Assembly (NCBI RefSeq): GCF_053078305.1 | Contig: NZ_CP166879.1 | Length of the DNA: 64,000 bases | Reading direction: 5' to 3' (one strand) | Part shown: in pieces, positions 1-61,142 of the stretch | Layout of the letters: every line of letters starts with the position of its first letter | Numbering within the stretch: the first letter of the stretch is position 1 | Notes under the pieces: generated by a model | What the model was told of the DNA's origin: nothing | Database searches by the model: none | What the model saw: only the letters and a program-made list of their open reading frames with translations | Program-made: the position numbers and the translations under genes

Positions 1-403
1 GGAGTCTTGCCCTGACGGCCTCCAGGTTATTCACCCGGGCTTCACTTTCCCTCAGCATGGCAGAGCTCCGGGTATCATCCAGTGTCAGCAGTACCTGACC
101 TTTCTCAACAATATCGCCTTCCCTGACCTCAAGTGATTTCAGTATACCCGGGTCAAGGGTCTGTATAACCTGCTCCCTGCTGCCGGGAATAATACTCCCC
201 TGACCTCGGGTCACTTCATCCAGAGGACTGTTCCATGCCCAGATAACAAACGTCACTACCAGTACCAGCAGAAAAATCACCATCAGGAAAAGGGCATGAT
301 GCTTTTCCTGCTGAAGAGCTGCCTGTACATCTGTCAACAGCGCCAGGTCTGACTGCCTGACCACCTCTGACGACGCTTTATTCCGTTCCGTTTTTTCTGT
401 CAT
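1..403 (-). CDS. Type I secretion membrane fusion protein (HlyD family), N-terminal part; gene runs off the window start
   Basis: Minus-strand ATG at 403 (plus cat 401-403); translation MTEKTERNKASSEVVRQSDLALL... followed by a single TM segment (LFLMVIFLLVLVVTFVIWAW) and the start of a periplasmic domain, typical of HlyD-type adaptors; lies directly downstream of the ABC transporter gene. Confidence 0.7.
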   Translation of the reverse strand, partial: MTEKTERNKASSEVVRQSDLALLTDVQAALQQEKHHALFLMVIFLLVLVVTFVIWAWNSPLDEVTRGQGSIIPGSREQVIQTLDPGILKSLEVREGDIVEKGQVLLTLDDTRSSAMLRESEARVNNLEAVRARL

Positions 404-462
404 ATCCCTGCGGTCCACAAACTGTTAAACATATCTGCTCTTTTTTCTTATCCGGTTGACGT

Positions 463-2610
463 TCAGGAAGCTGCCGGTCTGCTCTCTTCACTCTGCTGTT
501 TCCCTGACAGTCTTTTCAGTATTTCATCACGGGGACCGTCCATCATTACCCGCCCTTCATTCATCACGACAATACGGTCAACAATATTCAGAACCTGCAG
601 ACGATGTGTCACCACCACCATTGTGCGTCCCCGGCTCCAGTGGCTCAGACCTTTCAGAACAACAGACTCAGTCTGCAGGTCCAGACCTGTCGTGGGCTCA
701 TCAAGCAGTACCACCCGGGGAGACCCCAGTACCATTCTCGTCAGGGCAACCATCTGCCTCTGTCCTCCTGACAGCCCCTGACCGCCTTCCCCTGTCTGCA
801 TATCAAGTCCGCGGGGATGATGCCGGATAAAACGGTCAAACCCGAAACGTCCGGCTGCATTAATCATATCCACATCCGACAGGCTTCCCGGCAGACGCGA
901 AAGCTGCAGATTTTCACGCAGAGTTCCCAGAAAAAGCCGGGGATTCTGTTCCAGAAGAAACACTTTATCCCGGACAAAACAGGGGTCCAGTTGCTGCATC
1001 GCAACCCCGTCAAGAGTAATTTGTCCCCTGTTCTGACGGTACAGCCCCACCATCATTTTCAGCAGCGTCGATTTACCACAACCTATTGAGCCAATAATAC
1101 CCACCCGCTCTCCGGGCCGGATACAGAGCGACAAACCGCACAATGCGTCGGGTAATCCGGGCTTATAAGAAAAGGAGACATCACTGAAACGAAACTCTCC
1201 CTGGATATCCTTCACTGTCAGATAATGTGTCTGACTTTCCCGCTCCACCGGACGGCGGACAATGTCATTCACCCCCTGCATGGCCAGGCGGGCCTGCTGA
1301 AAACGGGTGGCCAGTGATGCTATCTGACCAAGCGGTGCCAGCGCACGACCGGAAAGAATAACTGCGGCAATCAGTGCCCCCATGGTGATTCGGTTATGTG
1401 GGTCATCACTGTGAATAAGGTACGTCCCCAGAATGACCAGCAGAACAGTATTCAGTTGCTGAACTGCTGTGGAAAAGCAGATTATGACATTACTGGTATT
1501 TTTTACCCGTATGGACGAGCGGGCGACACTGGCTGTATATCCATCCCAGCGGCGCTGGACCCAGTTAACTGCATTATTCAGCTTCAGGGTTTCTATTCCG
1601 TCCAGTGCCTCCACAAGTAATCCCTGGCGCTGCGATGATTCCCGCATGGAGGCATTAATATGACGCGAAAGCGGTCGCTGCAGTAATATTCCTGCCAGAA
1701 TCACCAGCGGAACCAGTGTAAGAGGAACAACAGCAAGCCAGCCCCCCACAAGCCCGATGACACCAATGAAAAGCAGGATAAACGGCAAATCCACAAAAGC
1801 CAGCAGCGTGGCGCTGGTCATAAACTCCCTGACAGACTCATATTCCCGCAAATTGCTGGCGTATGAACCGGAAGACGCCGGCCTGTCCGACATTTTCACT
1901 GCCATCACCCGCCTTAACAGTGCTGAGCTGATAATCAGGTCTGCCTTCTTACCCGCAATATCCGTCAGATAGCTCCGGATTAACTTTGCAGCACACTCAA
2001 ACAGAACGGCTGCAATCACCCCGATACTCAGCATCCATAACGTTTCCCAGGAGCGATTGGGTATGACCCGGTCATAAACGTTCATGACATACAGGGAACT
2101 GACCAGCGCAAGAAAGTTAATGATAAAACTCGCAAGAATGACCTGTCCGTAATATGGCCTGAACCGCCACAGTACCCGCCAGAACCATGCCCCGGTCATG
2201 TCATACTCCGGCAGTTCCGAACGGCGATCCTGTGTTGCCTGTGGCTGAACAAACCAGCAGTAACCTGAATAAACAGCCATTAATTCATCGTGAGAAAGTG
2301 TCTTACGGAGTCCCCCGGGCTGGAGTACATGATACTGCCGGGCCAGGCCGGCACCCTCAATACGCACCACCACAATGGCTTCCTGTGCATTCAGTAAAAG
2401 AAGCACAGGAACCGCAAGTGAAGGAATATCTTCCGGAGCCCGCCGGGAAAGATGATTATCGAACCCTTCACTGCGAAGAAACTCGCCAACAGAACGAAAA
2501 TCAATCCCGGAGACATCTGTCCGGACTGTACCGGCAGCCAGCGTCTCAGCAGATACAGGTGTACCCAGTAATGCCGTTACCTGTGATAATCCTTCAAAAA
2601 TACTCTTCAC
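463..2610 (-). CDS. Type I secretion ABC transporter (permease/ATPase) with N-terminal C39-like domain lacking the catalytic cysteine
   Basis: 715 aa; Walker A GSIGCGKST, ABC signature LSGGQRQ, Walker B VLLDEPT; six-TM core; no Cys in the first ~120 residues; apparent GTG start with AAGGA upstream. Confidence 0.9.
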   Translation of the reverse strand: MKSIFEGLSQVTALLGTPVSAETLAAGTVRTDVSGIDFRSVGEFLRSEGFDNHLSRRAPEDIPSLAVPVLLLLNAQEAIVVVRIEGAGLARQYHVLQPGGLRKTLSHDELMAVYSGYCWFVQPQATQDRRSELPEYDMTGAWFWRVLWRFRPYYGQVILASFIINFLALVSSLYVMNVYDRVIPNRSWETLWMLSIGVIAAVLFECAAKLIRSYLTDIAGKKADLIISSALLRRVMAVKMSDRPASSGSYASNLREYESVREFMTSATLLAFVDLPFILLFIGVIGLVGGWLAVVPLTLVPLVILAGILLQRPLSRHINASMRESSQRQGLLVEALDGIETLKLNNAVNWVQRRWDGYTASVARSSIRVKNTSNVIICFSTAVQQLNTVLLVILGTYLIHSDDPHNRITMGALIAAVILSGRALAPLGQIASLATRFQQARLAMQGVNDIVRRPVERESQTHYLTVKDIQGEFRFSDVSFSYKPGLPDALCGLSLCIRPGERVGIIGSIGCGKSTLLKMMVGLYRQNRGQITLDGVAMQQLDPCFVRDKVFLLEQNPRLFLGTLRENLQLSRLPGSLSDVDMINAAGRFGFDRFIRHHPRGLDMQTGEGGQGLSGGQRQMVALTRMVLGSPRVVLLDEPTTGLDLQTESVVLKGLSHWSRGRTMVVVTHRLQVLNIVDRIVVMNEGRVMMDGPRDEILKRLSGKQQSEESRPAAS

Positions 2611-2614
2611 TTAT

Positions 2615-3883
2615 TTATCTGTCCTTCTGCCCTGTTACTTTTTCTTCTGCACCAGAAAGATTCACTCCGCTCCATTTCAGGAGCATTCCCTGGGAATACA
2701 GATAATCCAGCATTCCGTGGAGCATCTGATCCTCTGTCTGAACCCGGGAAAGCCCGACGCTGTACAGTTCGTTTTCTGCATTCAGTAATTCAATCAGTGT
2801 TTTTCTTGCCACCCGGAACTGAAGACGATAAAAGTCCACAACTCTGGCAGAGGCCTGCTCCTGACGTCTGAGCGTTTCCATTTCCATCCGACTTTGTCTG
2901 ACCGTTATCAGCGATAATCGTCCGGTTTCATCAATCATTCGGGCAACAGAGTCCAGTCGTCCGGTAGCTGCAGCTATCTGCGCGGCCTTTTCACTGACAC
3001 CATAACTGGCATTACGGTTGAACAGGTCCCAGGACAGACTGACACCTATCTGCCTGTCATCCCGGGTCACTGATCCCGTTAAATCCACCCGGGGATACCG
3101 GGCAAGCTCCTGCGCTTTCAGCGCCGCTTTTTTACTCTCTACATCAGCCTGACTGGCAAGCCACGACGGATTCCCTTTCTGAGGCGTCTGCGTAAAATCA
3201 GTTAACAATCTGGACTCTGTCATCCGGGAAAAAGGATTTTCAAGATCGGCTTCGGTTACCGGATTTGTGGTCCAGGTCGAAAGTTTTCCCAGCGTGGTTT
3301 TGAGCACTCGGGTGCGGGTATTTATCTGCTGCCGGACCATCAGCCTGCGGGCTTCGGCCTGAACAAATTCAGATTCCCGCCCGGTATCGTGAATACTGAT
3401 GGTGTTAAGATCATTAAGAATTGCGTTATGCCGGGAGAGACTCTGTTCAAGTACCGCAATGGATTGCTTTTCCCTTAGCGCATCAAGATATAATGAAACA
3501 AAGGAGCGAATTGTTTCCTCGCCAGCCTCATCAACTTTATAACGGTAATACTCGGCTTCCGACTCACTCCGGCTGACATCCGCCTCAATAGCTCCCGAAG
3601 CGAATATATTCATTTCACCGCGGATACCGGGCAAAATATCTTCAGAGTCGTAGTCATAGTCGTAGCGGTGACTCTGGGAAAGGAGTTTACTGCCTGTTGC
3701 TGTGACGACCGGCCAGTGTGCTGAACGAGCCTGCTCCACACGGGAACGGGCAGAGGTGGCTTCTGCCCTTGCCTCCATCACTGATGGATCATGAATGAGA
3801 GCATCCCTCAGGAGGGCCGGCAGTGGAGAAGCGAACACGTTGTGGACAGAGAAAAGAAAACAGAAAGATAATATTCTCTTCAC
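2615..3883 (-). CDS. TolC-family outer membrane factor of the type I secretion system
   Basis: 422 aa with N-terminal signal peptide; encoded immediately upstream of, and tightly coupled to, the ABC transporter gene; GTG start preceded by GGAGG. Confidence 0.75.
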   Translation of the reverse strand: MKRILSFCFLFSVHNVFASPLPALLRDALIHDPSVMEARAEATSARSRVEQARSAHWPVVTATGSKLLSQSHRYDYDYDSEDILPGIRGEMNIFASGAIEADVSRSESEAEYYRYKVDEAGEETIRSFVSLYLDALREKQSIAVLEQSLSRHNAILNDLNTISIHDTGRESEFVQAEARRLMVRQQINTRTRVLKTTLGKLSTWTTNPVTEADLENPFSRMTESRLLTDFTQTPQKGNPSWLASQADVESKKAALKAQELARYPRVDLTGSVTRDDRQIGVSLSWDLFNRNASYGVSEKAAQIAAATGRLDSVARMIDETGRLSLITVRQSRMEMETLRRQEQASARVVDFYRLQFRVARKTLIELLNAENELYSVGLSRVQTEDQMLHGMLDYLYSQGMLLKWSGVNLSGAEEKVTGQKDR

Positions 3884-4564
3884 CCGAACCTCCGGGACAC
3901 GCGGGAAATATAATCAGGCATCATGATGCAACCGGGTAAAATATTGAGTAAAATTGAAATGCAGAGACACCGGAATTGATCCAAGCTACCGCCATTATCT
4001 TCCGCGCTGACAGAAGATAATAAAAATGTGAGATACTTCAATTTTATTGAAAACCTGAAAAACCCTTACAATCCTTGCAGTTTATGAAGAAAATTTTCAC
4101 AAAGTAAATTTAAAAATAAACAAATTAAATGTAATATAATCGGGGGAGGATTAACCATCGATGATTGCCGGAACAAAAAACAATATAAACCAACAAGATA
4201 GAAAATCATCACAACAAAGGGAAAGGTCTGTAGATAAAGAGTGGGATGGACTTCTTACTTCATATCACATAATTGATATTTTTTATCCTGCAAACTCCAA
4301 CGGCATTATGTATGACTTAGCCTCAGGCAATTATCACAGGCAAAAAAACAATATATTGTAAGCTTCATAGAATTTGGAACTTTATATAATAAATAATTCT
4401 GAGTTTTTTATCACCATTATATTAACAAAATTAATGTATTCCAGAGATTTCACATTAGTCTCCAATTTTTCAGAAGAATCTATTTACCTGGCAGGAAAAG
4501 TCATCTGGTGTTTCGCCGGAGTGAGGGGTACAGGCAATAGCGGACATAACCATTTGTTCTTTTT

Positions 4565-5300
4565 CTAAGCAGCCATCTGATAATATTTTATCCTGAAGGC
4601 TGTCGGGGAGATATTCCCCAGACGAGAGTGACGACGCTGACGATTGTAGAAAATCTCAATGTATTCCCGTATTACTGAGATGGCCTCATCCCGGCTTTTA
4701 AAACGATAGTGGCTCAGACTTTCATTTTTCAGCGTTCCCCAGAAGCTTTCCATCGGAGCATTGTCGTAACAGTTAACTTTACGCGACATTGATATTTTCA
4801 GACCAAACTGCTCCTGTATGGCCCTGTAATCGTATGCGCAGTACTGTGAACCACGATCGGAGTGGTGGATTAGCCCGGTAGGTGAGCGCTGGTTCCTGAG
4901 CGCCATAAACAGGGCTTTACCTGTCAGCTCTTTTGTCATGCGCTCTCCCATGGCGTAGCCGACAATTTCGCACGTATAAACATCTTTGACGCCAGCGATA
5001 TACAGCCATCCTTCCGGGGGGCAACATACGTTATATCTGCAACCAAGACCTGATTAGGTGCTGTAGGCGTAAAGTTCTGATTCAGGAGATTCGGCGCAAC
5101 CGGCAGATTGTGACCAGAGTTCGTGTTCGCCCTGAACTTGCGTTTCAGCTTACAGTGCAGCCTCAGCTCCTTACGAAGACGTGCCAGTCTGTCACGACCG
5201 ACGATAATTCCGTTATCTGCCAGCTCCGTCTGGAGCAGCTAGGTTCCATATGTTTCGCGTGTGCGGATATGTGCCACCTTAATCTCCAGTTTTAGCCGCT
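4565..5300 (-). mobile_element. IS3-family insertion sequence remnant (transposase OrfB C-terminal fragment, upstream frame broken)
   Basis: ORF 4565..4951 encodes an integrase-core C-terminus (HHSDRGSQY...CYDNAPMESFWGTLK...FYNRQRRHSRLG); no intact orfA or continuous orfB upstream; right boundary approximate. Confidence 0.6.
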
Positions 5301-5503
5301 CATCACTTTGTTTTCTGTCTGAGGGTCATGCTGTACTCAGTCGTAATAACCGATCCTGTATACACCAAGTACCCGACACATCGCTTCAATACATAATCGC
5401 ATCTGAATCGTTCACCGATTCGCGGCATTTTTCAAGGTAGTTGTCGCCATTGTTCGACTAACTGATCGACATTACAGCCTAGAGCCTAGCTGGGGGCTGT
5501 GCA

Positions 5504-5530
5504 CAAAAAAGCCCCGGACATTCCGGGGCT
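5504..5530 (-). terminator. Rho-independent terminator downstream of the lipoprotein gene
   Basis: Minus-strand hairpin AGCCCCGG-AATG-CCGGGGCT followed by TTTTTTG, just 3' of the stop at 5541. Confidence 0.6.
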
Positions 5531-5540
5531 ACACTGCATA

Positions 5541-6314
5541 TTAACGAACGCTCTGTCCGGTTATTTCAACCCTGCGGTTGGGGCGCAGACATTCCTTCAG
5601 TGCTTCGCCCTCCACATCCGGGCAGAACACCACTGGTGCATCATATCCACGGCCCGTTGCATGTATCCTTTCAGCCCTGAATCCCCGGGCAATAAACCAC
5701 CCCCTGACTGATTCCGCCCGTTTCTCTGACAGGAGCCGGTTATACGCCTGCCCGCCAAGATGGTCCGTAAATCCTTCTATCTTCACCCCGACAACATGAC
5801 CCGCCTGAAACTTCTCTGCCACACGGGAAAGTGCATCACGCCCCCTCTCTGTCAGAGTCCATGAATCAAAATCAAATAATATATCACCGGGGACTGACTC
5901 CCTGTATTCTGCTGTCTCTGCCTCCGGCAGACAGTTTTCCGGCTTCCAGTAGAAAGAGCGGGCATCCATGTTCCGGTCAAACAGTATCTTGTACTGGCAG
6001 GTATAATCCCCCTCCGGTCCGGTAAAGTTGAACAGGTAATCCCATTCCCTTACACCAGACATCCCTTCAGCAAAGTGTGGTCTCCCCGCCAGCTGATAAA
6101 TCTGGTCCTTATTCATACCCGCCTTTATCTGACGTAACTTTTCTGGCAGTGGCCACGAACCTTTCTGTGTTCCGTCATGATTAAACTTCACCTTCTCCGG
6201 AGAAGGCCATACCACTTCTTCCGTCGTTCCTTCATCCGTGACATGACTCAGATTTCCACATCCTGCAAGCATCAGGGACAGCACACCCGTCATCATCATT
6301 CGACTAAATAACAT
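5541..6314 (-). CDS. Outer membrane lipoprotein with BamE/SmpA-like N-terminal domain and OmpA-type peptidoglycan-binding C-terminal domain
   Basis: Lipobox LMLAGC; OmpA-like motifs (GFTDHLGGQAYNRLLSEKRAESV, NRRVEI); AAGGAG RBS; sits 25 bp downstream of the adhesin gene on the same strand. Confidence 0.8.
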   Translation of the reverse strand: MLFSRMMMTGVLSLMLAGCGNLSHVTDEGTTEEVVWPSPEKVKFNHDGTQKGSWPLPEKLRQIKAGMNKDQIYQLAGRPHFAEGMSGVREWDYLFNFTGPEGDYTCQYKILFDRNMDARSFYWKPENCLPEAETAEYRESVPGDILFDFDSWTLTERGRDALSRVAEKFQAGHVVGVKIEGFTDHLGGQAYNRLLSEKRAESVRGWFIARGFRAERIHATGRGYDAPVVFCPDVEGEALKECLRPNRRVEITGQSVR

Positions 6315-6338
6315 TACATTTCTCCTTGCTTTTCCCTG

Positions 6339-9300
6339 TTACCACTGCCAGCCCACACCGGCACCGACGGAGAAATTACCCCGGGTGTTCTGACCTGCAT
6401 TCAGTTTCATTATCATCTTACCGTTATCGGAGATTCGGGACACACCTATTGCAATGGCGCTTTCACCACCATATCCACCGACACCCAGCCCCATCAGACT
6501 TTTACCCGGCAGATAGGCCTGAGGTATCCCGCTCATGGCCGCAGCCGATGCGCCAACACCACGGATATCCCGGTTAAGCTCTTCCACCCGGTAGCTCAGC
6601 TGACTGAATTTATTCCCGAGAGTGTTTATCGCCTGTGTATTTCCGGCAACCTGACGGTTAGTTGCATGCAACTGACTGCCATTGACGGCATCCGTTGAAT
6701 TCGCAGACAACACACCCGGTGCCACTGACTGCAGCTGACGCTCCTGTCCCGGCTGACCAAAAGAAACCACCGCAGTATCACTTCCGGTACGTCCCGCAAC
6801 AGCCTGACCGTTCAGGGCATAAGTCCCGGTATTCGCGCGGCCAGCACGGGCATGGCTGCCAACTGCAACAGAGCCGGCAGCAGCCTGACGCGTGACTTCA
6901 GCACCATTACCCATGGCAATGCTGTTTTGTCCCCGGGAAACGGCTCCCTGTCCGACAGCAATGCTGTCACGTCCTTCCGCTTTTGCTGCCTGACCGGAAG
7001 AGGCTGCTTTAAAATACTTCGTGCCTTCACGGTTCAGCATATTCACTGCATCAGCCACATTATCCGGTGTTTTATGTACACCACCATTCACCGTTGTCTT
7101 ACCGCCACCTGCAGTTGTCAGCTCACTGAAGGTGTCAGGAGCCAGCGCTGCTTTTCCGTCTTTCCAGACAACATTATCACCGCCAGCAATTCTGGCTGCA
7201 GATGCCAGCTGGCTCCCGTTAACCGCATCCGTGGATACCGGTGACACATTTCCGGCCGCCACATTTGTCAGAACAAGAGGCTGCTCACTGCTTATTCTGA
7301 CACGGGCCGGCTCAGCCGGCGTCATTGTCAGTTTCCCGGTCGCAGCATCTTCGGTCTGTGTGTAAAAACGACCTCCAATATTGACAAGCGGGTTCCCCTG
7401 GCTGTCGGTGTACTCCACCGGAATCCCCGTCACATCAATCTCATAGCTGTAATTTCCCTTGTCATCCTTACTGATGGCTGAAACCCGGGTATTCTGTCCG
7501 TGGCGGACTTCAACTGTCTGGGAAGAAACAGCAACAGCCTCATCACCGGATTCAGTCTTCAGTGCCCAGGTCGTTGCTGCCGTTGCCTGACTGATTTCAC
7601 GGTTCAGTTGTGAAACGTTAACGGCGTCCTGGTCATTCACCCCGTCTTTCACGCCGGAAATAACCCGGCCAGCCGCATCAATACCGTTCACAGTCACTGA
7701 CGGGCCATCCTTGATGGTCAGCCCGTTTTTATCCATCCGGGTTCCGCCGACAGAAACGCTGCCGTCATCTCCCAGGCGAATGTTATCAGCGAGTCTGACC
7801 GTCAGGCTCCCGTTCTGAACAGTCGTGCTGATATTCTGCCCGTCACCACCAACCGTGATATGCTTCCCGAGAGACGTGTTCACCTTGCTTCCGTCATCCG
7901 CCTGCAGACCAAAGCCGGTATTCACCAGTGCCGCACTGCTGTCACGGAGAGCATTTTTCAGGTCACCGATATTGGCCGCATTATTCAGAACATCTCCACC
8001 GGCGTCAGCAAGCGCAGTGCCGTTCAGACCACTGGCCACACTGGTTATCTGATTTCCACCGTTATTCAGGCCGGAGCCGGTAAGGGAAACCGTATTCCCC
8101 TGACCACCGCCCGCAGCAGGTGTTGTGATTGTGATGCCTTTATCATTAACTGTTGTTATCTGCCCACCTGTACCAAAAACCGCGCTGGCCAAATCACGGA
8201 GGTTTCTGGTCATCCTCACCAGAAGCCCGCCATTATCATTATCAACCCGGATATTGCCGTCAGTCACTTCAGCATTCTTCTCTGCACCACCTTTGATGGT
8301 CAGTTTTTCATTCAGTTTTTTATGAATAACCTTTCCGTCATCACCCTCAAAAGAAAGACCGTCATTCATGGTCGCCAGCTCTTCTGCCGGTGATTTTCCA
8401 TCCGGGGTATAAGTCAGACGTGTCTTCGTGGTACCGGCAGCATCTGTTAATCCACCTTTGCCTGCATTAACAGCAATGGTTGCTGACGCAGACTTTCCAC
8501 CCGCAGCAGGCGAGGATGTCAGTTTAATCGTGCCATCCTGACCATTCAGACTCACAGCCTCCTTACCATCAGCCCCGTTAACTTTGATGCTGCCGGGAGT
8601 ATTATTGCTCCCAACGCTCAGGTCATTATTCAGGGATATTTTTAACCCCTTATCCCCATTGGTGATGGCTGTGGTGGTGATATTGCTGTCCCCGGATACT
8701 TTAATCGCCTGCCCAAGAGACTGTTTCACTTCCTTATCATCAGAGTCTTTCAGTGCGAAACCTGCACCCTGCATACTGGAGGACACACCATCAATTGCCG
8801 TTTTCAGGTCTGCAACACTGGCGGCATTTTTCATCTCTTTATCAGTATTCGTTAACGTCGAAAGTTCCTTACCTTCCAGTCCACTTGCCACACCACTGAT
8901 AACAACACCATTTTGTCCGGCACCATTACCGCCTGACAATGTCAGCTTATTACCTTCGGATGAGAGCGTTACACTTCCGTTATTTCCTTTTCCATTCAGC
9001 TGAACACTGCTGAATGACGGAGTATCAATAACAGAGAATGTAAAATCACCACCACTTTGTTTCACGCTGAGATTTTTACCGGCTTTCAGCGTAACCATAT
9101 CACCGGGTTTTATCAGTGTTTCTGTTCCCTGACCATTTCCCTCGATAACACCACCGGTATCTTTATCCGCTTTAATTTTCCAGCCAGACTGGTTTATGGC
9201 ATCAGCAATGTTTTTCGCAGTAACAAGTTTATCGCCATCACCATTGTTTACTGTAATCTTCCCGTTACCACCATTTACAGGCAACGAAGCTGTCTCTGCT

Positions 9301-10670
9301 GAAATCTCCAGTTTATCTCCAGCCACCTGGGTTTTTATTGGGCCTTTGCCAGTGATTTCGACATTGTCACCAAGACTCTTCGTCAGCGTCTTACCATCTC
9401 CACCTTTAATTTTGATGGCATCATTTTTTATTTCATTTTTCAGCGTTGTTCCGTCAATCGTCATTCCTTTATCATTAACAGTAACTGCAATATCTCCATC
9501 ACCTTTAACAGTTAAAGTGTTACCATTCTTATTATCCTTCCCACCATTAATAGTCGCAGAACCTCCCTTATCATCCTTTAGCGTCCACGTCGGATTAATG
9601 GCATCAAGGTCATCTTTCAGTGTCTTCGCTATCGCATATAACTGACTACCGTTAATGGCATCTGTACTTGTGTCAGAAATCGCACCCGCCCCCACGTTAA
9701 CAATCTGACGCTCTTTACCCGCATCACCAACAGATACTACTGATGCTGCGTTATTTCCGGCAAAGCCACTATATGTGACTTCCGCGCCTCTTTTAGTTCT
9801 GACCTTAGCCTCTGTTACTTTTTGTGCCTGCTTATCCCTGGAGTCAGCGCCGATGGACACGTTCCCCTTTGCGACAGTAACGGTTGCTCCATGCCCCAGG
9901 GCAACCGTTTCATTCTGAGCGGCATTTGCCTCTGAACCAACAGCAAGAGCATCGTTTTTATTTGCAGAGGACTGACTACCAACGGCCAGAGCATTACCGG
10001 CATTAGCCAGCGCATTAAAACCAACCGCAGTCGCCATATCCCCTTTAGCTTCCGCCGTGGCTCCAATTGCATTCGAGGCCATCCCCTCAGCAGAACTCAC
10101 CGAACCAAGCGATACTGACAATTCGCCTTTAGCAAAAGTTCTGCTGCCCAGCGCAATACTGCCATCCCCCTGCGCTTCCGATGCAAGATAGCCATTCTCT
10201 ATTTTTTCCCGACCATAAGTCTTACCATGCAAAGGAGTTAAATCATCCCCACCAATAACAATAGCCCCCCATCCGGTAGCTTTGGTATCGCCACCTATTG
10301 CAATTGACTGTTCTTTAGTTGCTTTCGTTTTCGCTCCTATCGCAATAGACTCGCCTGTGTACAAACCTTCCTTCGTGCTAATGTCACCTCCAGCCTCTGC
10401 ACTGGTACCAATCGCGATAGAGTTACGTCCTTCAGCCACCGGTGATTTATGGTCGAAATTAATTCCCTTTGATTCATCTTTTGCTGTAAATTTCGTTGTA
10501 CCTATTTCAATGCTCTTCCAGTCATCGCCATAGACATCATGGCCAAGGCTGGTTTCATCAACTTCAACAGTTAACTTATTTGTATCTGCCTGAGCACTGA
10601 CCTGTGATATGGATGCCGGATTAAGAACAAGTGATATGGCTATACAGATATGTTTTTTTCTGAGGTTCAT
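6339..10670 (-). CDS. Trimeric autotransporter adhesin (type Vc, YadA-like anchor)
   Basis: 1443 aa from ATG at 10670 (AAGGAG RBS); repeated neck/head motifs (DAINGSQL, DAVNGSQL, NVSQLN); C-terminal anchor ending GNFSVGAGVGWQW. Confidence 0.9.
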   Translation of the reverse strand: MNLRKKHICIAISLVLNPASISQVSAQADTNKLTVEVDETSLGHDVYGDDWKSIEIGTTKFTAKDESKGINFDHKSPVAEGRNSIAIGTSAEAGGDISTKEGLYTGESIAIGAKTKATKEQSIAIGGDTKATGWGAIVIGGDDLTPLHGKTYGREKIENGYLASEAQGDGSIALGSRTFAKGELSVSLGSVSSAEGMASNAIGATAEAKGDMATAVGFNALANAGNALAVGSQSSANKNDALAVGSEANAAQNETVALGHGATVTVAKGNVSIGADSRDKQAQKVTEAKVRTKRGAEVTYSGFAGNNAASVVSVGDAGKERQIVNVGAGAISDTSTDAINGSQLYAIAKTLKDDLDAINPTWTLKDDKGGSATINGGKDNKNGNTLTVKGDGDIAVTVNDKGMTIDGTTLKNEIKNDAIKIKGGDGKTLTKSLGDNVEITGKGPIKTQVAGDKLEISAETASLPVNGGNGKITVNNGDGDKLVTAKNIADAINQSGWKIKADKDTGGVIEGNGQGTETLIKPGDMVTLKAGKNLSVKQSGGDFTFSVIDTPSFSSVQLNGKGNNGSVTLSSEGNKLTLSGGNGAGQNGVVISGVASGLEGKELSTLTNTDKEMKNAASVADLKTAIDGVSSSMQGAGFALKDSDDKEVKQSLGQAIKVSGDSNITTTAITNGDKGLKISLNNDLSVGSNNTPGSIKVNGADGKEAVSLNGQDGTIKLTSSPAAGGKSASATIAVNAGKGGLTDAAGTTKTRLTYTPDGKSPAEELATMNDGLSFEGDDGKVIHKKLNEKLTIKGGAEKNAEVTDGNIRVDNDNGGLLVRMTRNLRDLASAVFGTGGQITTVNDKGITITTPAAGGGQGNTVSLTGSGLNNGGNQITSVASGLNGTALADAGGDVLNNAANIGDLKNALRDSSAALVNTGFGLQADDGSKVNTSLGKHITVGGDGQNISTTVQNGSLTVRLADNIRLGDDGSVSVGGTRMDKNGLTIKDGPSVTVNGIDAAGRVISGVKDGVNDQDAVNVSQLNREISQATAATTWALKTESGDEAVAVSSQTVEVRHGQNTRVSAISKDDKGNYSYEIDVTGIPVEYTDSQGNPLVNIGGRFYTQTEDAATGKLTMTPAEPARVRISSEQPLVLTNVAAGNVSPVSTDAVNGSQLASAARIAGGDNVVWKDGKAALAPDTFSELTTAGGGKTTVNGGVHKTPDNVADAVNMLNREGTKYFKAASSGQAAKAEGRDSIAVGQGAVSRGQNSIAMGNGAEVTRQAAAGSVAVGSHARAGRANTGTYALNGQAVAGRTGSDTAVVSFGQPGQERQLQSVAPGVLSANSTDAVNGSQLHATNRQVAGNTQAINTLGNKFSQLSYRVEELNRDIRGVGASAAAMSGIPQAYLPGKSLMGLGVGGYGGESAIAIGVSRISDNGKMIMKLNAGQNTRGNFSVGAGVGWQW

Positions 10671-11307
10671 ATATACCCTCTTTTCTCCTTTATTTTCTTC
10701 CACTCAGTCGGAATAGCATAAAAATCATGCATGAATATTATGTAAGGTGGACTACCTTCATTTCTTCAGCATCCATTTTTTATAAAGCCAGAAGTGAACA
10801 AAACGGGAACCATTAAAAAGCAGACAAAAGGCAATAAAGTGATTTATAATAATGCAAACATAAAACATATTAAGTTTAAGTAAACTACCCGACATTACGC
10901 GTTACAGCAGAATGCAGGTACACTACCTGCCATTGCCTGACGCACTGGCGAAGGCAGTAAAAATGAGATACATTTCACTTCGCAGCAAAAAAAACGAAAT
11001 CCTGCAATTTTTCTGATTTTACTGACAGAAAAGCCCGAGAGTTAAATTTAAATAACTTAAAAGATTCTGTGGTATAATCAGGTTCATACAGGCCTGATTG
11101 TTTCACAGGAAATTAAATCTTTTAAATCAACAGGCTATGGAGGTGTAATGGTGATGAATTGTGTAAAGATAGAGTGTGAGTATAACTGGAGTAATAAAAC
11201 CAAATTAAAATTATCAATATTTAACAAATGTAATTTATTAAGTTTATTTTTATCAAAATTAAAAGCATTACAACCTGGAAGCTGACGTTACTGATTACTA
11301 TACTGGT

Positions 11308-11343: not shown

Positions 11344-13392
11344 TCAGAAGGATATTCTTACATTAGCCCAGTAACGACGTCCTTCATCGACCTGCCAGTT
11401 ACCATCAATGGTATCGATATCTTCGCTCTTTCTGTCTGTGACGTTAAGTACGGCAAAATTAATCAGCGTGCCTGGCAGGAACTGGTAATTCATACCAATA
11501 TCCATAGAAGTGAATCCATTACGAACACGGGGAACCTTGGCACCATTTCTTTGTGCTGCCCAGATTTGTTTTCCTGTATAATTCAGAGATGAATAAAATG
11601 TAATATCCTGAGTGTAATCCCATTCCAGTTTTGCATTGGCTGCATGTCTGGGAGTTCTTTCCAGAGGTTCCCCTTTCAGCGACTTGCCATTGAGACTTTC
11701 GTCATCGCTTTCTCGACGGGAGTCAGTGAATGTATAGTTTGCAGATACACGCCATTTATCATACACAGGAATCTGAGTTGCAAGCTCCACACCTCTGATA
11801 TTTGCCTCACCCACATTATCATAAATAAAAGTGTTTAGCCCAGTGACTGGATCTTTTGTGCCTATATCGTAACTGGTCAGCTTATTTTTAAAATCTGTAT
11901 TAAACAGAGTCGCGCTTGCTGAAAAACCACTGTCATTATTATAAATAATACCGATCTCTTCGGTTACACTGGTCTCCGGTTTCAGGTCCCTGTTTCCATA
12001 CATAATAGAGGCACCACCCTGCGTCAGTGTTCCAAATCCAGGACTGACCTCACGAATCGAAGGGGCCCGAAATGCTTTTGCGATCCCTCCTTTGAGAGTG
12101 AGATTATCGGTCAGGTTATAAACAGCATACAATCTTGGATTCCAGTAACTGCCATAGATTTCATGGTTATCGAGGCGCAACCCTCCAGTCAGGGCGAGAG
12201 AATCCGTTGCAGCATATTCATTTTCTATAAAAACAGCTTTCTGTTTAACTGAAACAGACTGTGTTTCTGTCGTTTTTTTACCTGTGGCTGAGTCATCACG
12301 GAGTTCTGCATGCTGAAATTGACCTCCGATGGTCAGCACATTTTCCGGCAGAAATGCCGTCACTTTTGCATCTATGATCGTGTTGGTTATTTCCGGTTTT
12401 CTTGACTCGTAATTAAGATCCCAATGATTATATTTATCTTTTTTACCAGATTTAACCTCACGAATAACTTTCTCCTGATAAACAGCAATTTCAGGATGCA
12501 GTATTTCGCCCTGGGCATTCCATGCTGCTACCCAGTGACTACGTGAGTTATGTGTTTCTCTTTTACTGTTTGGTTGTTTAAGATTTCCCCGCATAGTCCA
12601 GGCATCAAGAGAATCACCAGGTGTTAATGTATGTTCCTGGTTATTTTTTCCGTATTCAAAAACAAACTTCTGGCTTTCAGTCGGAGTAAACTGGAGTGTT
12701 GCCGTTATATTCTTATTATCTTTTGCTGGTGTTCCCTGAGAGATACTATCTTCCTTGCGATAGTTCATTCCTCCATATAACTGAAGACCAAGTTTATCCT
12801 TAACCAATGGGCCTGACAGGTAGAAGTCATTCGTGGTTGAGTTACCAAATTTCCCATGTTCCTGAATAATTCCCCCAAGCCCAAGTACGCCATCCCATGT
12901 CTGGTTATTAACAGGTTTGGTTATGATATTAATAACTCCTCCGATAGCATCGGAACCATACAGGGAAGACATAGGGCCACGTATAACTTCAATACGCTCA
13001 ATTGCTTCCACAGGAGGGATAAATCCGGCTTCAAAACCGCCGCTGCCGTTTGGTCTGGATTCCCGACCACTCTGACGTCGTCCATCGACCAGAATCAATG
13101 TATAATCGCCACTTAACCCACGTATACTGATATCCGGTTTTTCATTCCCACCGGTGATACTAATCCCTTCAACATCTTTTACCGCATCGACCAGGTCTGA
13201 AACCGGTTTTTTTTGCAGTTGCTCTGAAGTAATGACTGAAACACTGGCCGGTGCATTTCTGAGTTGCTGAGTGAAGCCGGAGGCAGTAACAACAAGCGTA
13301 TCTTCTTTTTTATCAGAACTGGCATAACCTGATGATATGACTGCAGAACATATCACGGCAATGCCCGGAGCAATGATATATTTGTTCTTCAT
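11344..13392 (-). CDS. ireA: TonB-dependent outer membrane siderophore receptor, IreA-like
   Basis: 682 aa from ATG at 13392 (RBS AAGGGA); signal peptide, plug and beta-barrel features, C-terminal aromatic residue; N-terminus matches my recollection of E. coli IreA; Fur box upstream. Confidence 0.8.
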   Translation of the reverse strand: MKNKYIIAPGIAVICSAVISSGYASSDKKEDTLVVTASGFTQQLRNAPASVSVITSEQLQKKPVSDLVDAVKDVEGISITGGNEKPDISIRGLSGDYTLILVDGRRQSGRESRPNGSGGFEAGFIPPVEAIERIEVIRGPMSSLYGSDAIGGVINIITKPVNNQTWDGVLGLGGIIQEHGKFGNSTTNDFYLSGPLVKDKLGLQLYGGMNYRKEDSISQGTPAKDNKNITATLQFTPTESQKFVFEYGKNNQEHTLTPGDSLDAWTMRGNLKQPNSKRETHNSRSHWVAAWNAQGEILHPEIAVYQEKVIREVKSGKKDKYNHWDLNYESRKPEITNTIIDAKVTAFLPENVLTIGGQFQHAELRDDSATGKKTTETQSVSVKQKAVFIENEYAATDSLALTGGLRLDNHEIYGSYWNPRLYAVYNLTDNLTLKGGIAKAFRAPSIREVSPGFGTLTQGGASIMYGNRDLKPETSVTEEIGIIYNNDSGFSASATLFNTDFKNKLTSYDIGTKDPVTGLNTFIYDNVGEANIRGVELATQIPVYDKWRVSANYTFTDSRRESDDESLNGKSLKGEPLERTPRHAANAKLEWDYTQDITFYSSLNYTGKQIWAAQRNGAKVPRVRNGFTSMDIGMNYQFLPGTLINFAVLNVTDRKSEDIDTIDGNWQVDEGRRYWANVRISF

Positions 13393-13413
13393 AAATTTCC
13401 CTTTTCTAAAATC

Positions 13414-13432
13414 GTAATGATAATGATTTGCG
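13414..13432 (-). promoter_or_regulatory. Fur box upstream of the ireA-like gene
   Basis: AATGATAATGATT core matches 12 of 13 positions of the Fur consensus core AATGATAATCATT, 22-40 bp upstream of the start codon. Confidence 0.5.
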
Positions 13433-14158
13433 TTAGCAAGAAAAAATTTACAATGAACAGAAAGGAAGGTAAATAACATTTAGCTCATTCAGGTAACACT
13501 TTGAACCTGTCCGACTTGATGAGAATCAGCCCCTTTCTACGAGGGACTCCTTACTGTATAATTTATAGTCCTGTCGAAGAGGTAAAATCTTTCAACCGGA
13601 TATCTCCATAAACAGCATTCCAGTAAATCAAGCAAGAGTGAACAGGAGACTGGTGCTGTTTATTACGGTATGCTTGTCCGATGTGGTGGAAAATAAAAAT
13701 GGGCGACTGACCAGATATGGGAGTCTCCGGTCAGTCATTCGCTTGTAGATGCAGGACATAAGCGAACCAAGGCCCACTGCTTCTGCGCAAAAGCAAGGGG
13801 GAGTTTACCCTGGTAGATTGAGTTTCGCGTCACTGACCAGTCAGAGCTTCAGACTCATCTTACACCACTAACCCCCTTACCACTCCTGAATCTTCCCTCG
13901 GCAACAGCCAAGACAGTATCGTACTGTTCACCACCATCTTTTCCCGTGAATGACAGTAAGTGCAAAGCCCCAATATAAATCAGTACTTCCGATGACAGAC
14001 AGTGAAGGCGTAAGGTGAAATATGCACGTAAGGCAGTATGACTTTCCGTGAGACAGATGCTGTCCAACGTGGGATATTTAATGCGGGTTAACATCGTTGT
14101 CAGAGCCGCATGGGTGAGCTGTTGCTACCCCCCTGGAATTTCCACCACGGAGGCCAGC

Positions 14159-59039: not shown

Positions 59040-61142
59040 CTAATTTGTAATTCTAAAAATCCGATCAACTGTTCTTAAAGTTGTCTCTCTATGTGCAATA
59101 ATCACCCGGGTGATATTCATCTTTTTTATAGCAGCATTCACGAAACGTTCACTTTCTGTATCAAGAGAACTTGTAGCCTCATCCATAAATAATATTCCAG
59201 GTTTCCGGTATAAAGCTCGGGCAATGAATATACGCTGTTTTTGACCGCCGGAAAGACCTTCCCCCAGTTCACCTATTAACGTTTCATACCCCATTGGCAT
59301 TTTCATTATCACATCATGAATATGACTTGCTTTGGCACATTCTGTCATCCATTCGTCGTCTGTTTCTTCTGCAAACCCACAGATATTTTCACGAATTGAT
59401 CCTGAAAATAGCCGGTCGTCCTGCATAACACAGGCTATCATACGGTGATAATTATTTATTCCAAGTTGACGTATATCCGTGCCATTAACCAGTACTTTTC
59501 CACTATCTGGTTCAAACAGTCCACATAATACTTTCATTAATGTGGTTTTTCCGGCACCGGAGGCACCAGTTATAGCCACACTTTCTCCCGGAGCCACAGA
59601 CAAATTCAGACCACTGAATACCTGTGCTGACTGGCTGTCATACCGGTAGCTTAAATCAGTGGTTTCCAGTGAAACCGGGCTCATGTCAGCAACGATTTCA
59701 ATTTCCGGTTTCTTTTCTTCCTTTTCATGTAGTGCAATATCTGCAATGCGCTCATTATGCAGACTCATTATTCTCAGTTGAAGAAGAAAACTGGTCAGCG
59801 AAGCAACCCGATCCGAAAACTGCCCACGAAAAGAACCAAATGCCACAAACATCCCTATTGTCATCTGATTATCGATCACAAGGCTTGCACCCAGCCATAA
59901 AATCGCCACCTGATCACAGGCGGCAACAAAAGTATTTATCCCCCCGAAGAGCAAATCCATCCTGGTTAACTTAATACCTGAATTGATCGCATCTATTTTC
60001 AGGTTAAGCCAGTGTGTTCCCCGAATCCCAGCCATACCCTGGATTTTTACCGTGGCAATACCATACAGGCTTTCCATAAAATAGGAGCTGGCCCGGGCCC
60101 CCCTGACAAGAGTTTCTTCCGATATTTGCCGGTAATAGCCGTATGTCACCAGACGAATAAGAACGTAAACCATGGTAAAACCGAGCACTATCCAGGTAAG
60201 ATATCCTCCATATAACAGCATCATCACAAAAACACCCACAACCATAATACTGTCCATGATTGCCCCAACAACACAGGTAGTAAAGGTGGCCCTCAAAGTG
60301 TCAAGGGAGCCAAAACGCGACTGGATATCACCTAATTTACGGCGTTCAAAAAACGCCAGCGGCAGTCTGAGAAGATGGTTAAACAGACCCGACTGCCACT
60401 GTATATTGATGAGCGTGCTCATAACCAGTGAGGACCATGCACGCAGCATACTCACCGCGGCCCTGAGCAATATAAAGAACATCAGGCCAGCAGAAATAAG
60501 CGTCAGCAGCCCTCTGTCCCCCGCCGGAATCGCATGATCCATAACCAGCTGAGTTCCCACCGGCATTACCAGATTGATTGCTTCAATTACAACTGACAGA
60601 CAGAAAATTTTCGCCAGTGTTCTTTTAATACCGTAAATACTGTTAATCAGTGAACGGAGACTTATGCGGGTCTGCTGGGTTTCCGCCAGGAATTCACTTC
60701 CGGGCCAGACCTCAAGTGCAATGCCCGTAAAATACCGGCTCATTTCCTCCCGACCGAGATATCTTCTGCCTCTGGCCGGATCATGCAGTACATAACGGTT
60801 ACGCTTTACGCTGACCAGCACGACGAAGTGACTGAAATCCCAGTGGAGAATACACGGCATTTTGAGGGCACCAAGTTCATCCAGCTCCAGTGAAAGAGCC
60901 CGGGTGACCATCCCCAGCTGCTCCGCTATTCCATTGATTCCTGCAAGGTTTGCTCCACGGGCCGAGAGATTAAACTTCCGGCGAAGAGATATCAGGTCAA
61001 TATTCTTACCAAAATGACCGCATATCATTGCCAGGCAGGCCAGTCCACATTCAGCGGTCTCCGTCTGATGAATAACCGGAACACGACGTCGCCAGCGCAT
61101 ATCAAGCTGATTTATAATTTGTCTGAAATTCCCGTTAGTCAT
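59040..61142 (-). CDS. Microcin ABC exporter with catalytic C39 peptidase domain (CvaB/MchF-like)
   Basis: About 700 aa from ATG at 61142 ([11 protein letters not shown]...); C39 active-site region [16 protein letters not shown] retains Cys; Walker [10 protein letters not shown], signature LSGGQKQR; closely resembles CvaB from memory. Confidence 0.9.

Follow-up and report, generated by a model that had tools for sequence, protein, structure and literature searches.

What does a type I secretion operon export when the stretch of DNA that carries it ends before any cargo gene is reached, and to which of the known systems does it belong? This question is raised by positions 1-3883 of a 64,000-nucleotide stretch of contig NZ_CP166879.1 (NCBI RefSeq assembly GCF_053078305.1), the whole of which is hereafter called the window. 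According to the list of open reading frames (ORFs), the minus strand of this region carries three co-oriented, closely spaced ORFs, which encode an outer-membrane factor, an ATP-binding cassette (ABC) exporter and the first part of a periplasmic adaptor. A first-pass annotation made from the letters of the window had compared this operon with the LapEBC-type systems that serve large adhesins. Our analysis supports that interpretation and leads to a more specific one: judged by sequence, region 1-3883 is the orthologue of tosCBD, the secretion-apparatus half of the characterised tos-type operon of Escherichia coli. We consider it very probable that this tos-type operon exports a giant repeat adhesin whose gene follows tosD directly, past the start of the window.

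In uropathogenic E. coli, the TosCBD proteins encoded by tosRCBDAEF export the surface adhesin TosA (PMC5956150, PMC7545054), which stays on the cell surface (PMC7545054). TosR is a dual activator/repressor of the PapB family; H-NS and Lrp repress tos, and TosR counters them (PMC5956150). TosE and TosF are LuxR-type regulators (PMC5956150; PMC7545054; PMC3088117).

Results

Of 5426 complete E. coli genomes, 333 carry the stretch 1-4600 of the window. Among these carriers, 47 genomes have it at an identity of at least 95% and 288 at 90-95%, and 56 of the matching places are plasmid-borne. Nissle 1917 and ATCC 25922 belong to the 90% class. At the Nissle 1917 locus, which adjoins pic, a PapB/FocB-family regulator is followed by a TolC family protein, a type I secretion ABC protein, an HlyD adaptor, a large beta-strand-repeat protein and two helix-turn-helix regulators. 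The proteins of the window share 92% (TosC, residues 30-415), 94.5% (TosB, full length) and 99.3% (TosD, residues 1-134) identity with those of Nissle 1917, and it is because of this identity and the same gene order that we regard the operon as the tosCBD orthologue. The order of outer-membrane factor, ABC protein and adaptor, which the first-pass annotation had called LapEBC-type, is exactly that of tosCBD; the ORFs lie exactly where they had been placed, and the Pfam and NCBIfam families agree with the roles given to them. Concerning the Nissle 1917 TosC (L002, 16636-17935), we also observed that its RefSeq start (386 aa) appears to be placed 29 codons too far into the gene: translation from an upstream ATG in the same frame gives MKRKHLLLLLLFSFSTNSA, the expected signal peptide of an outer-membrane protein, equivalent to the N-terminus in the window.

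The ABC protein matches both Pfam ABC_membrane and Pfam ABC_tran. It scores 891 bits with TIGR03375 (type_I_sec_LssB; curated cutoff 693), its residues 4-704 being aligned to profile positions 3-695 of 696, but only 380 bits with the HlyB model TIGR01846 (cutoff 725). Because the TIGR03375 score is above the curated cutoff, the protein is a member of the LssB/LapB family. Its N-terminal C39-like domain is followed by the transmembrane domain (residues ~157-415) and then by the nucleotide-binding domain (residues ~492-641), and its ATPase motifs are intact (Walker A at residue 507, the LSGGQ signature at 613, Walker B at 633 and H-loop at 668). The outer-membrane factor matches Pfam OEP in two stretches (98 bits), carries a predicted signal peptide at residues 1-18 (nt 3830-3883) and is 99.8% identical to the RefSeq 'TolC family protein' of a close relative, FHI_NMBU_11 (L001). 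The adaptor fragment matches TIGR01843 (type_I_hlyD, E 4e-27) and Pfam Biotin_lipoyl_2; it is 100% identical to the 415-aa adaptor of FHI_NMBU_11, which in full carries HlyD_3 and HlyD_D23. The region therefore holds the apparatus parts of a type I secretion system, namely a half-size ABC exporter with intact motifs, an adjoining HlyD-family adaptor and a TolC-family factor. The coordinates of these and the neighbouring features are given in Table 1.

Table 1. Features of the operon and of other parts of the window
Feature	Position	Strand	Remarks
TosD-like HlyD-family periplasmic adaptor, 5' part	1-403	-	134 codons; ATG at 403; cut by the window start
TosB-like ABC exporter (permease/ATPase), LssB/LapB family	463-2610	-	715 aa; GTG start
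Region coding for the C39-like N-terminal domain, degenerate and non-catalytic	2236-2610	-	Residues 1-125 of the ABC protein
TosC-like TolC-family outer-membrane factor	2615-3883	-	422 aa; GTG start
AT-rich upstream region, presumed promoter/regulatory, without tosR	3884-4458	-	From composition and conservation in relatives
IS3-family transposase remnant, degenerate	4565-5390		
OmpA-family gene	5541-6314	-	Name from the near-identical FHI_NMBU_11 annotation
YadA-like trimeric autotransporter adhesin	6339-10703	-	1454 aa; name from the FHI_NMBU_11 annotation
ireA	~11344-13479		
Second ABC export pair, ABC gene	59040-61160	-	Genuine peptidase C39 (136 bits; residues 21-149 on profile positions 2-132); Cys32
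424-aa ORF, overlapping and preceding the microcin-type ABC gene	61135-62409	-	Position of a microcin-type adaptor

Both GTG starts proposed in the first-pass annotation match the RefSeq annotation of proteins that are 99.3-99.8% identical. The start of the outer-membrane factor is further backed by the typical signal peptide (MKRILSFCFLFSVHNVFA) that follows it, and that of the ABC protein by its homologues, which begin at the same first residue (MKS...). The good ribosome-binding sites that had been claimed for the two genes stood only for the outer-membrane factor, which has GGAGG 4 nt ahead of its GTG, whereas the AAGGA 11 nt ahead of the ABC GTG is only moderate. As the latter GTG is placed 4 nt past the stop codon of the upstream outer-membrane factor gene, translational coupling of the ABC gene to that gene is likely.

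The ABC protein's N-terminal domain gave a score below the cutoff with Pfam Peptidase_C39 (PF03412; 14.5 bits, E 0.033, cutoff 22; residues 15-125 on profile positions 25-132). An hhalign comparison of the family of this domain with the C39 domain of the microcin exporter in the window produced a 32-column match with a probability of 1.2%, which aids the placement of the His but is no evidence of homology; since this match was too weak, a fold search was needed. The AlphaFold2 model of residues 1-150, built on 18 homologues, had a mean predicted local distance difference test score (pLDDT) of 83. Foldseek with this model returned as best match 3b79, a 'peptidase C39 like domain' (E 4.6e-9, target-normalised template modelling score 0.80, 22% identity, residues 3-125), followed by LahT, PCAT1, ComA and the HlyB C39-like domain 3zua; the matches to 3b79, 6mpz, PCAT1 and 3zua span E 5e-9 to 1e-6. 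A profile of the 18 homologues likewise found 3b79 at E 8.5e-10, and 3zua at only E 0.56. The homologue alignments used for modelling were shallow, with 18 sequences for this domain and seven for the cargo described below; the searches gave mostly short fragments. The C39-like domain of the first-pass annotation is thus upheld at the level of fold.

The residues required for catalysis were then read against the C39 domain of the microcin exporter as an internal positive control; this domain keeps its Cys, as had been noted, and passes the Pfam test. The position of the catalytic Cys at the N-terminus of helix 1, which matches Cys32 of the control, is taken by Ser3 when the Pfam register is extrapolated. 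The His position falls on Glu77 (hhalign against the microcin exporter) or Ala78 (3zua alignment), and the Asp position on Gln97 (sequence inspection). No conserved Cys, His or Asp was found at the catalytic columns among the 18 homologues, and the oxyanion Gln cannot exist because no more than two residues precede the Cys position. In the 3zua profile alignment, Trp77 and His83 of HlyB align to Leu72 and Ala78. The earlier statement that the first ~120 residues contain no Cys is literally incorrect, since C118 lies within GYCWF in the last beta-strand; this is the sole Cys of residues 1-205 and not at the catalytic position, and the catalytic Cys itself is indeed missing. No catalytic Cys/His pair appears on alignment, in agreement with the proposal of substrate recognition without leader cleavage. 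The N-terminal domain has the C39 fold, is non-catalytic and lacks both the Cys and the Trp, and is LapB-like, not HlyB-type. LapB-like transporters, including LssB, have been described as a third class without the C39 Cys and the Trp of C39-like domains, which serves large retained adhesins (Smith et al., bioRxiv 10.1101/198937). A Cys-less N-terminal domain is the described norm for transporters of the LapB/LssB class.

Within the window, no type I secretion cargo gene was found in or beside 1-3883. The 1454-aa ORF at 6339-10703 was considered as cargo and rejected; in the near-identical FHI_NMBU_11 annotation it is YadA-like, a type V trimeric autotransporter. As the window ends inside the adaptor gene, the cargo was read from relatives that are 96.6-99.3% identical over 1-4600. 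The window has no identical counterpart in the collection; the closest genomes reach 99.3% identity across 4.6 kb and 96-97% across 23 kb. In FHI_NMBU_11, which is 99.3% identical over 1-4600 and whose three apparatus proteins are 99.3-100% identical to those of the window, the adaptor gene is followed by a gene (L001, 8665-18870) for a 3401-aa 'GA-like domain-containing protein' with 28 GA_3 repeats. The best match over 23 kb, 2013C-3181, has a 4433-aa cargo with 37 GA_3 repeats (L006, 6052-19353). The cargo of SCU-171 has 2394 aa and GA-like repeats (L003, 7685-14869), that of SI-NP020 has 3291 aa and Ig-like Big_13 repeats (L004, 2995-12870), and a plasmid copy that retains a tosR-like gene encodes a 4232-aa GA-like cargo (L005, 232-12930). 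The absence of a substrate gene from the window had been noted, and its location beyond the window start, as a giant adhesin after the adaptor, had been predicted; a repeat protein of 2394-4433 aa does follow in every relative examined, from which its presence is extrapolated to the source strain. The corresponding ORF expected past window position 1, after about 281 remaining adaptor codons, would be several kilobases long, start with MKMIFTGKVSGEK and end in GxGxD/N repeats.

Ala accounts for 22% of the FHI_NMBU_11 cargo, and Glu, Asp and Lys together for another 31%; the protein has only two Cys. Its residues 1-128 are 86% identical to TosA, whereas its C-terminal region resembles TosA weakly (34% over 115 aa, E 7e-6) and the passenger repeats differ; six degenerate GxGxD/N beta-roll-like motifs lie in the last 250 residues. 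The first ~128 residues of the cargo remain conserved with TosA while length and repeats vary widely. The N-terminus is modelled as an all-beta domain of 105 residues (pLDDT 75-91), followed by ~45 disordered Gly/Ala-rich residues (107-151), in which an ALAAGGG motif is invariant among seven homologues, down to 37% identity. No retention-module family or solved structure matched this N-terminus, and the strict LapG motif [T/A/P]AAG is missing in the linker, where the sequence is ALAAGGG. No lapG or lapD gene is annotated within 20 kb in FHI_NMBU_11, SCU-171, SI-NP020 or 2013C-3181, the rest of these genomes not having been searched.

After the cargo gene, FHI_NMBU_11, SCU-171 and 2013C-3181 encode a family I.3 lipase homologue, a YadA-like trimeric autotransporter and LuxR regulators, of which there are two in the first two genomes and one in 2013C-3181; the FHI_NMBU_11 pair is 38-42% identical to TosE and TosF. 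The lipase homologue of FHI_NMBU_11 (L001, 6738-8606, minus strand), which has 622 aa and is annotated as a 'hypothetical protein', is homologous over its full length to family I.3 lipases, which are type I-secreted. Its matches include 2z8x (E 3e-64), the MIS38 lipase of Pseudomonas, and 2qua, LipA of Serratia; it reaches 334 bits with NCBIfam PueAB, below the family cutoff, and carries a GYSLGG nucleophile motif and C-terminal RTX (repeats-in-toxin) repeats. Its sequence suggests that it is likely to be a second cargo of the same apparatus.

Towards the upstream side of the operon, the DNA ceases to resemble the Nissle 1917 locus within the 5' part of tosC, at about position 3808. The leader that follows has a length of ~575 bp and ~30% G+C (over 4001-4500). 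Relatives with other neighbouring insertion sequence (IS) elements still match up to 4458, and an IS110 fragment abuts there in other genomes; because it is conserved to this point whatever IS element adjoins, the leader belongs to the operon variant, and a regulatory function is presumed for it. When 1-4700 was scanned for sigma-70 promoters, 4 sites were obtained where chance alone would give 5.3, so that no promoter was assigned, and Rfam gave nothing at E <=0.1 over 1-6400. The OmpA-family and YadA-like genes lie just upstream of the IS3 remnant, and ireA comes next; the island stacks several adhesin systems. In SCU-171 (L003, 21384-22866), subA and subB lie ~1.5 kb upstream of the tosR-less tosC leader, a neighbourhood that ties the operon variant to subAB-carrying islands.

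Discussion

In this study, gene order, protein identity and family assignment led us to a tos-type adhesin secretion system in which the ABC protein carries a non-catalytic N-terminal domain. Two other kinds of ABC exporter have such a domain fold, and they differ in what they would do with it. An exporter of the HlyB type would use its C39-like domain to bind the RTX repeats of a released pore-forming toxin. HlyB (7sgr, 8dck) is the closest solved type I secretion ABC exporter, behind eukaryotic ABCB transporters (E 1e-77), its C39-like domain 3zua shares the fold of the domain in the window, and the relatives do encode an RTX-repeat protein downstream. Nevertheless, we regard an exporter of this type as very unlikely, given that the ABC protein falls short of the HlyB model while passing the LssB model, that 3zua is barely recognised at the profile level and its Trp and His fall on Leu72 and Ala78, that the adjoining cargo in the relatives is a giant repeat adhesin and not a toxin of ~110 kDa, and that no hlyC-like acyltransferase gene is annotated in the relatives. 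The alternative of an exporter for a bacteriocin or microcin, with a C39 domain that would cleave off a double-glycine leader, draws on the same C39 fold and on the genuine microcin-type exporter present in the window. It has next to no chance of being correct, since the Pfam C39 cutoff that the true microcin exporter exceeds so clearly is not reached, the Cys, His and Asp are missing at the catalytic positions along with the oxyanion Gln, and the annotated operons of the relatives include no gene for a small peptide; this alternative is refuted for practical purposes.

Several points weigh against a working tos-type operon with an adhesin as its cargo. The outer-membrane factor scores 110 bits with TIGR01844, against a curated cutoff of 225. 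The cargo gene lies outside the window, its presence in the source strain being extrapolated from relatives that are 99.3%, not 100%, identical, and the pairing of the variant apparatus with a GA-repeat cargo is presumed from gene neighbourhood. In a tblastn search with TosR, no match in the window or in the FHI_NMBU_11 locus had an E value below 2, and the IS3 remnant is located 680 bp upstream of the operon, so that expression may be altered or silenced by the loss of tosR together with this remnant. These last observations also speak for an apparatus that is intact but whose locus is silent or decaying, with tosR lost, IS debris upstream and an AT-rich leader prone to H-NS; the low G+C content of the leader and the lack of promoter-like sites above chance fit such a state, as does the dependence of the characterised tos operon on TosR to counter repression by H-NS and Lrp (PMC5956150). 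On the other hand, the three ORFs are of full length and their motifs are intact, the locus is retained at an identity of at least 95% in no fewer than 47 genomes, and the cargo gene remains open despite 7-13 kb of repeats, which argues for purifying selection. A silent or decaying locus is therefore unlikely in our judgement.

We thus keep to the reading of an intact tos-type apparatus with a giant adhesin as its cargo. In such a system, dimers of the TosB-like protein, TosD-like adaptors and a dedicated TosC-like channel would form an envelope-spanning tripartite conduit. The C-terminal signal and the beta-roll of the cargo would engage the ABC protein, and the N-terminal C39-like domain, by analogy with HlyB and LapB, would act as a cargo-docking/chaperoning module and not as a protease. 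This accords with how C39-like domains without catalytic activity are generally viewed, namely as docking and chaperoning unfolded cargo (PMC8277102). The unfolded giant adhesin would be threaded out C-terminus first without any leader cleavage, and the same channel may also export the family I.3 lipase homologue encoded after the adhesin. It is by analogy with the characterised systems that we infer secretion, cargo docking by the N-terminal domain, retention of the adhesin at the surface and expression in the source strain.

The modelled beta domain at the N-terminus of the cargo could, hypothetically, act as a retention plug in the manner of LapA. Combining this with the diversity of the cargo, we offer a broader proposal, which is tentative and which we would rather doubt than accept: tosCBD may be a cargo-swappable cassette, in which an apparatus that is at least 92% identical handles GA-like, Ig-like or TosA-type passengers built on a conserved 128-residue N-terminal beta domain and the invariant ALAAGGG linker; the tosR-less variant may also serve the co-encoded family I.3 lipase, and the N-terminal module may plug the TosC channel LapA-style without LapG/LapD. 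If true, two-step type I secretion would include a subclass in which the adhesin is retained constitutively.

The present assignment is of little importance beyond annotation. The generic RefSeq names ('type I secretion system permease/ATPase', 'GA-like domain-containing protein') mask an orthologue of a characterised uropathogenic virulence system, and the analysis places a tos-type adhesin secretion system in an island associated with Shiga toxin-producing E. coli (STEC) that also bears ireA, a YadA-like adhesin and a microcin exporter. As a mildly useful lead, the diversity of cargo behind a conserved apparatus, together with the loss of tosR, could guide work on the adhesion of STEC that are negative for the locus of enterocyte effacement.

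Comparison with known systems shows what is shared and what is particular to the operon in the window. The closest match of the N-terminal domain in both structure and sequence, 3b79, comes from a toxin-secretion ABC protein of Vibrio parahaemolyticus and is an isolated structural-genomics domain of uncharacterised function. The HlyB-HlyD-TolC system has a like tripartite architecture, and HlyB too has a non-catalytic C39-like domain that is thought to dock unfolded cargo (PMC8277102); however, the operon in the window encodes its own outer-membrane factor, and its ABC protein is below the HlyB cutoff and without the Trp77/His83 pair. The LapEBC/LssB systems of Pseudomonas fluorescens and Legionella pneumophila, which serve LapA-like giant adhesins, have the same gene order and an ABC protein in TIGR03375, and in LapB-like transporters the N-terminal domain lacks the C39 Cys and the HlyB Trp, as does that in the window. 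The folded N-terminal beta domain and disordered Gly-rich linker of the relatives' cargo resemble the retention module of LapA with its poly-Gly linker and di-alanine. No gene for a LapG-type periplasmic protease or a LapD c-di-GMP receptor is annotated in the neighbourhoods of the window's relatives, whole genomes not having been searched.

The nearest system is tosRCBDAEF itself, as found in CFT073 and Nissle 1917, which has the same order of tosC, tosB, tosD, cargo gene and LuxR pair at a nucleotide identity of ~90%. Nissle 1917 has tosR upstream, whereas the variant in the window is without tosR, and its 5' tosC end and leader are unrelated from ~3808 on. The repeats of the cargo are of the TosA type there but GA-like helical (28-37 repeats) or, in one genome, Ig-like in the relatives of the window. 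These relatives also add the family I.3 lipase homologue and the YadA-like adhesin between the cargo and LuxR genes, and the identity of their LuxR proteins to TosE and TosF reaches only 38-42%. Finally, the characterised operon resides in the PAI-aspV context, while the variant in the window is found in an ireA/phosphotransferase system island of STEC-type strains.

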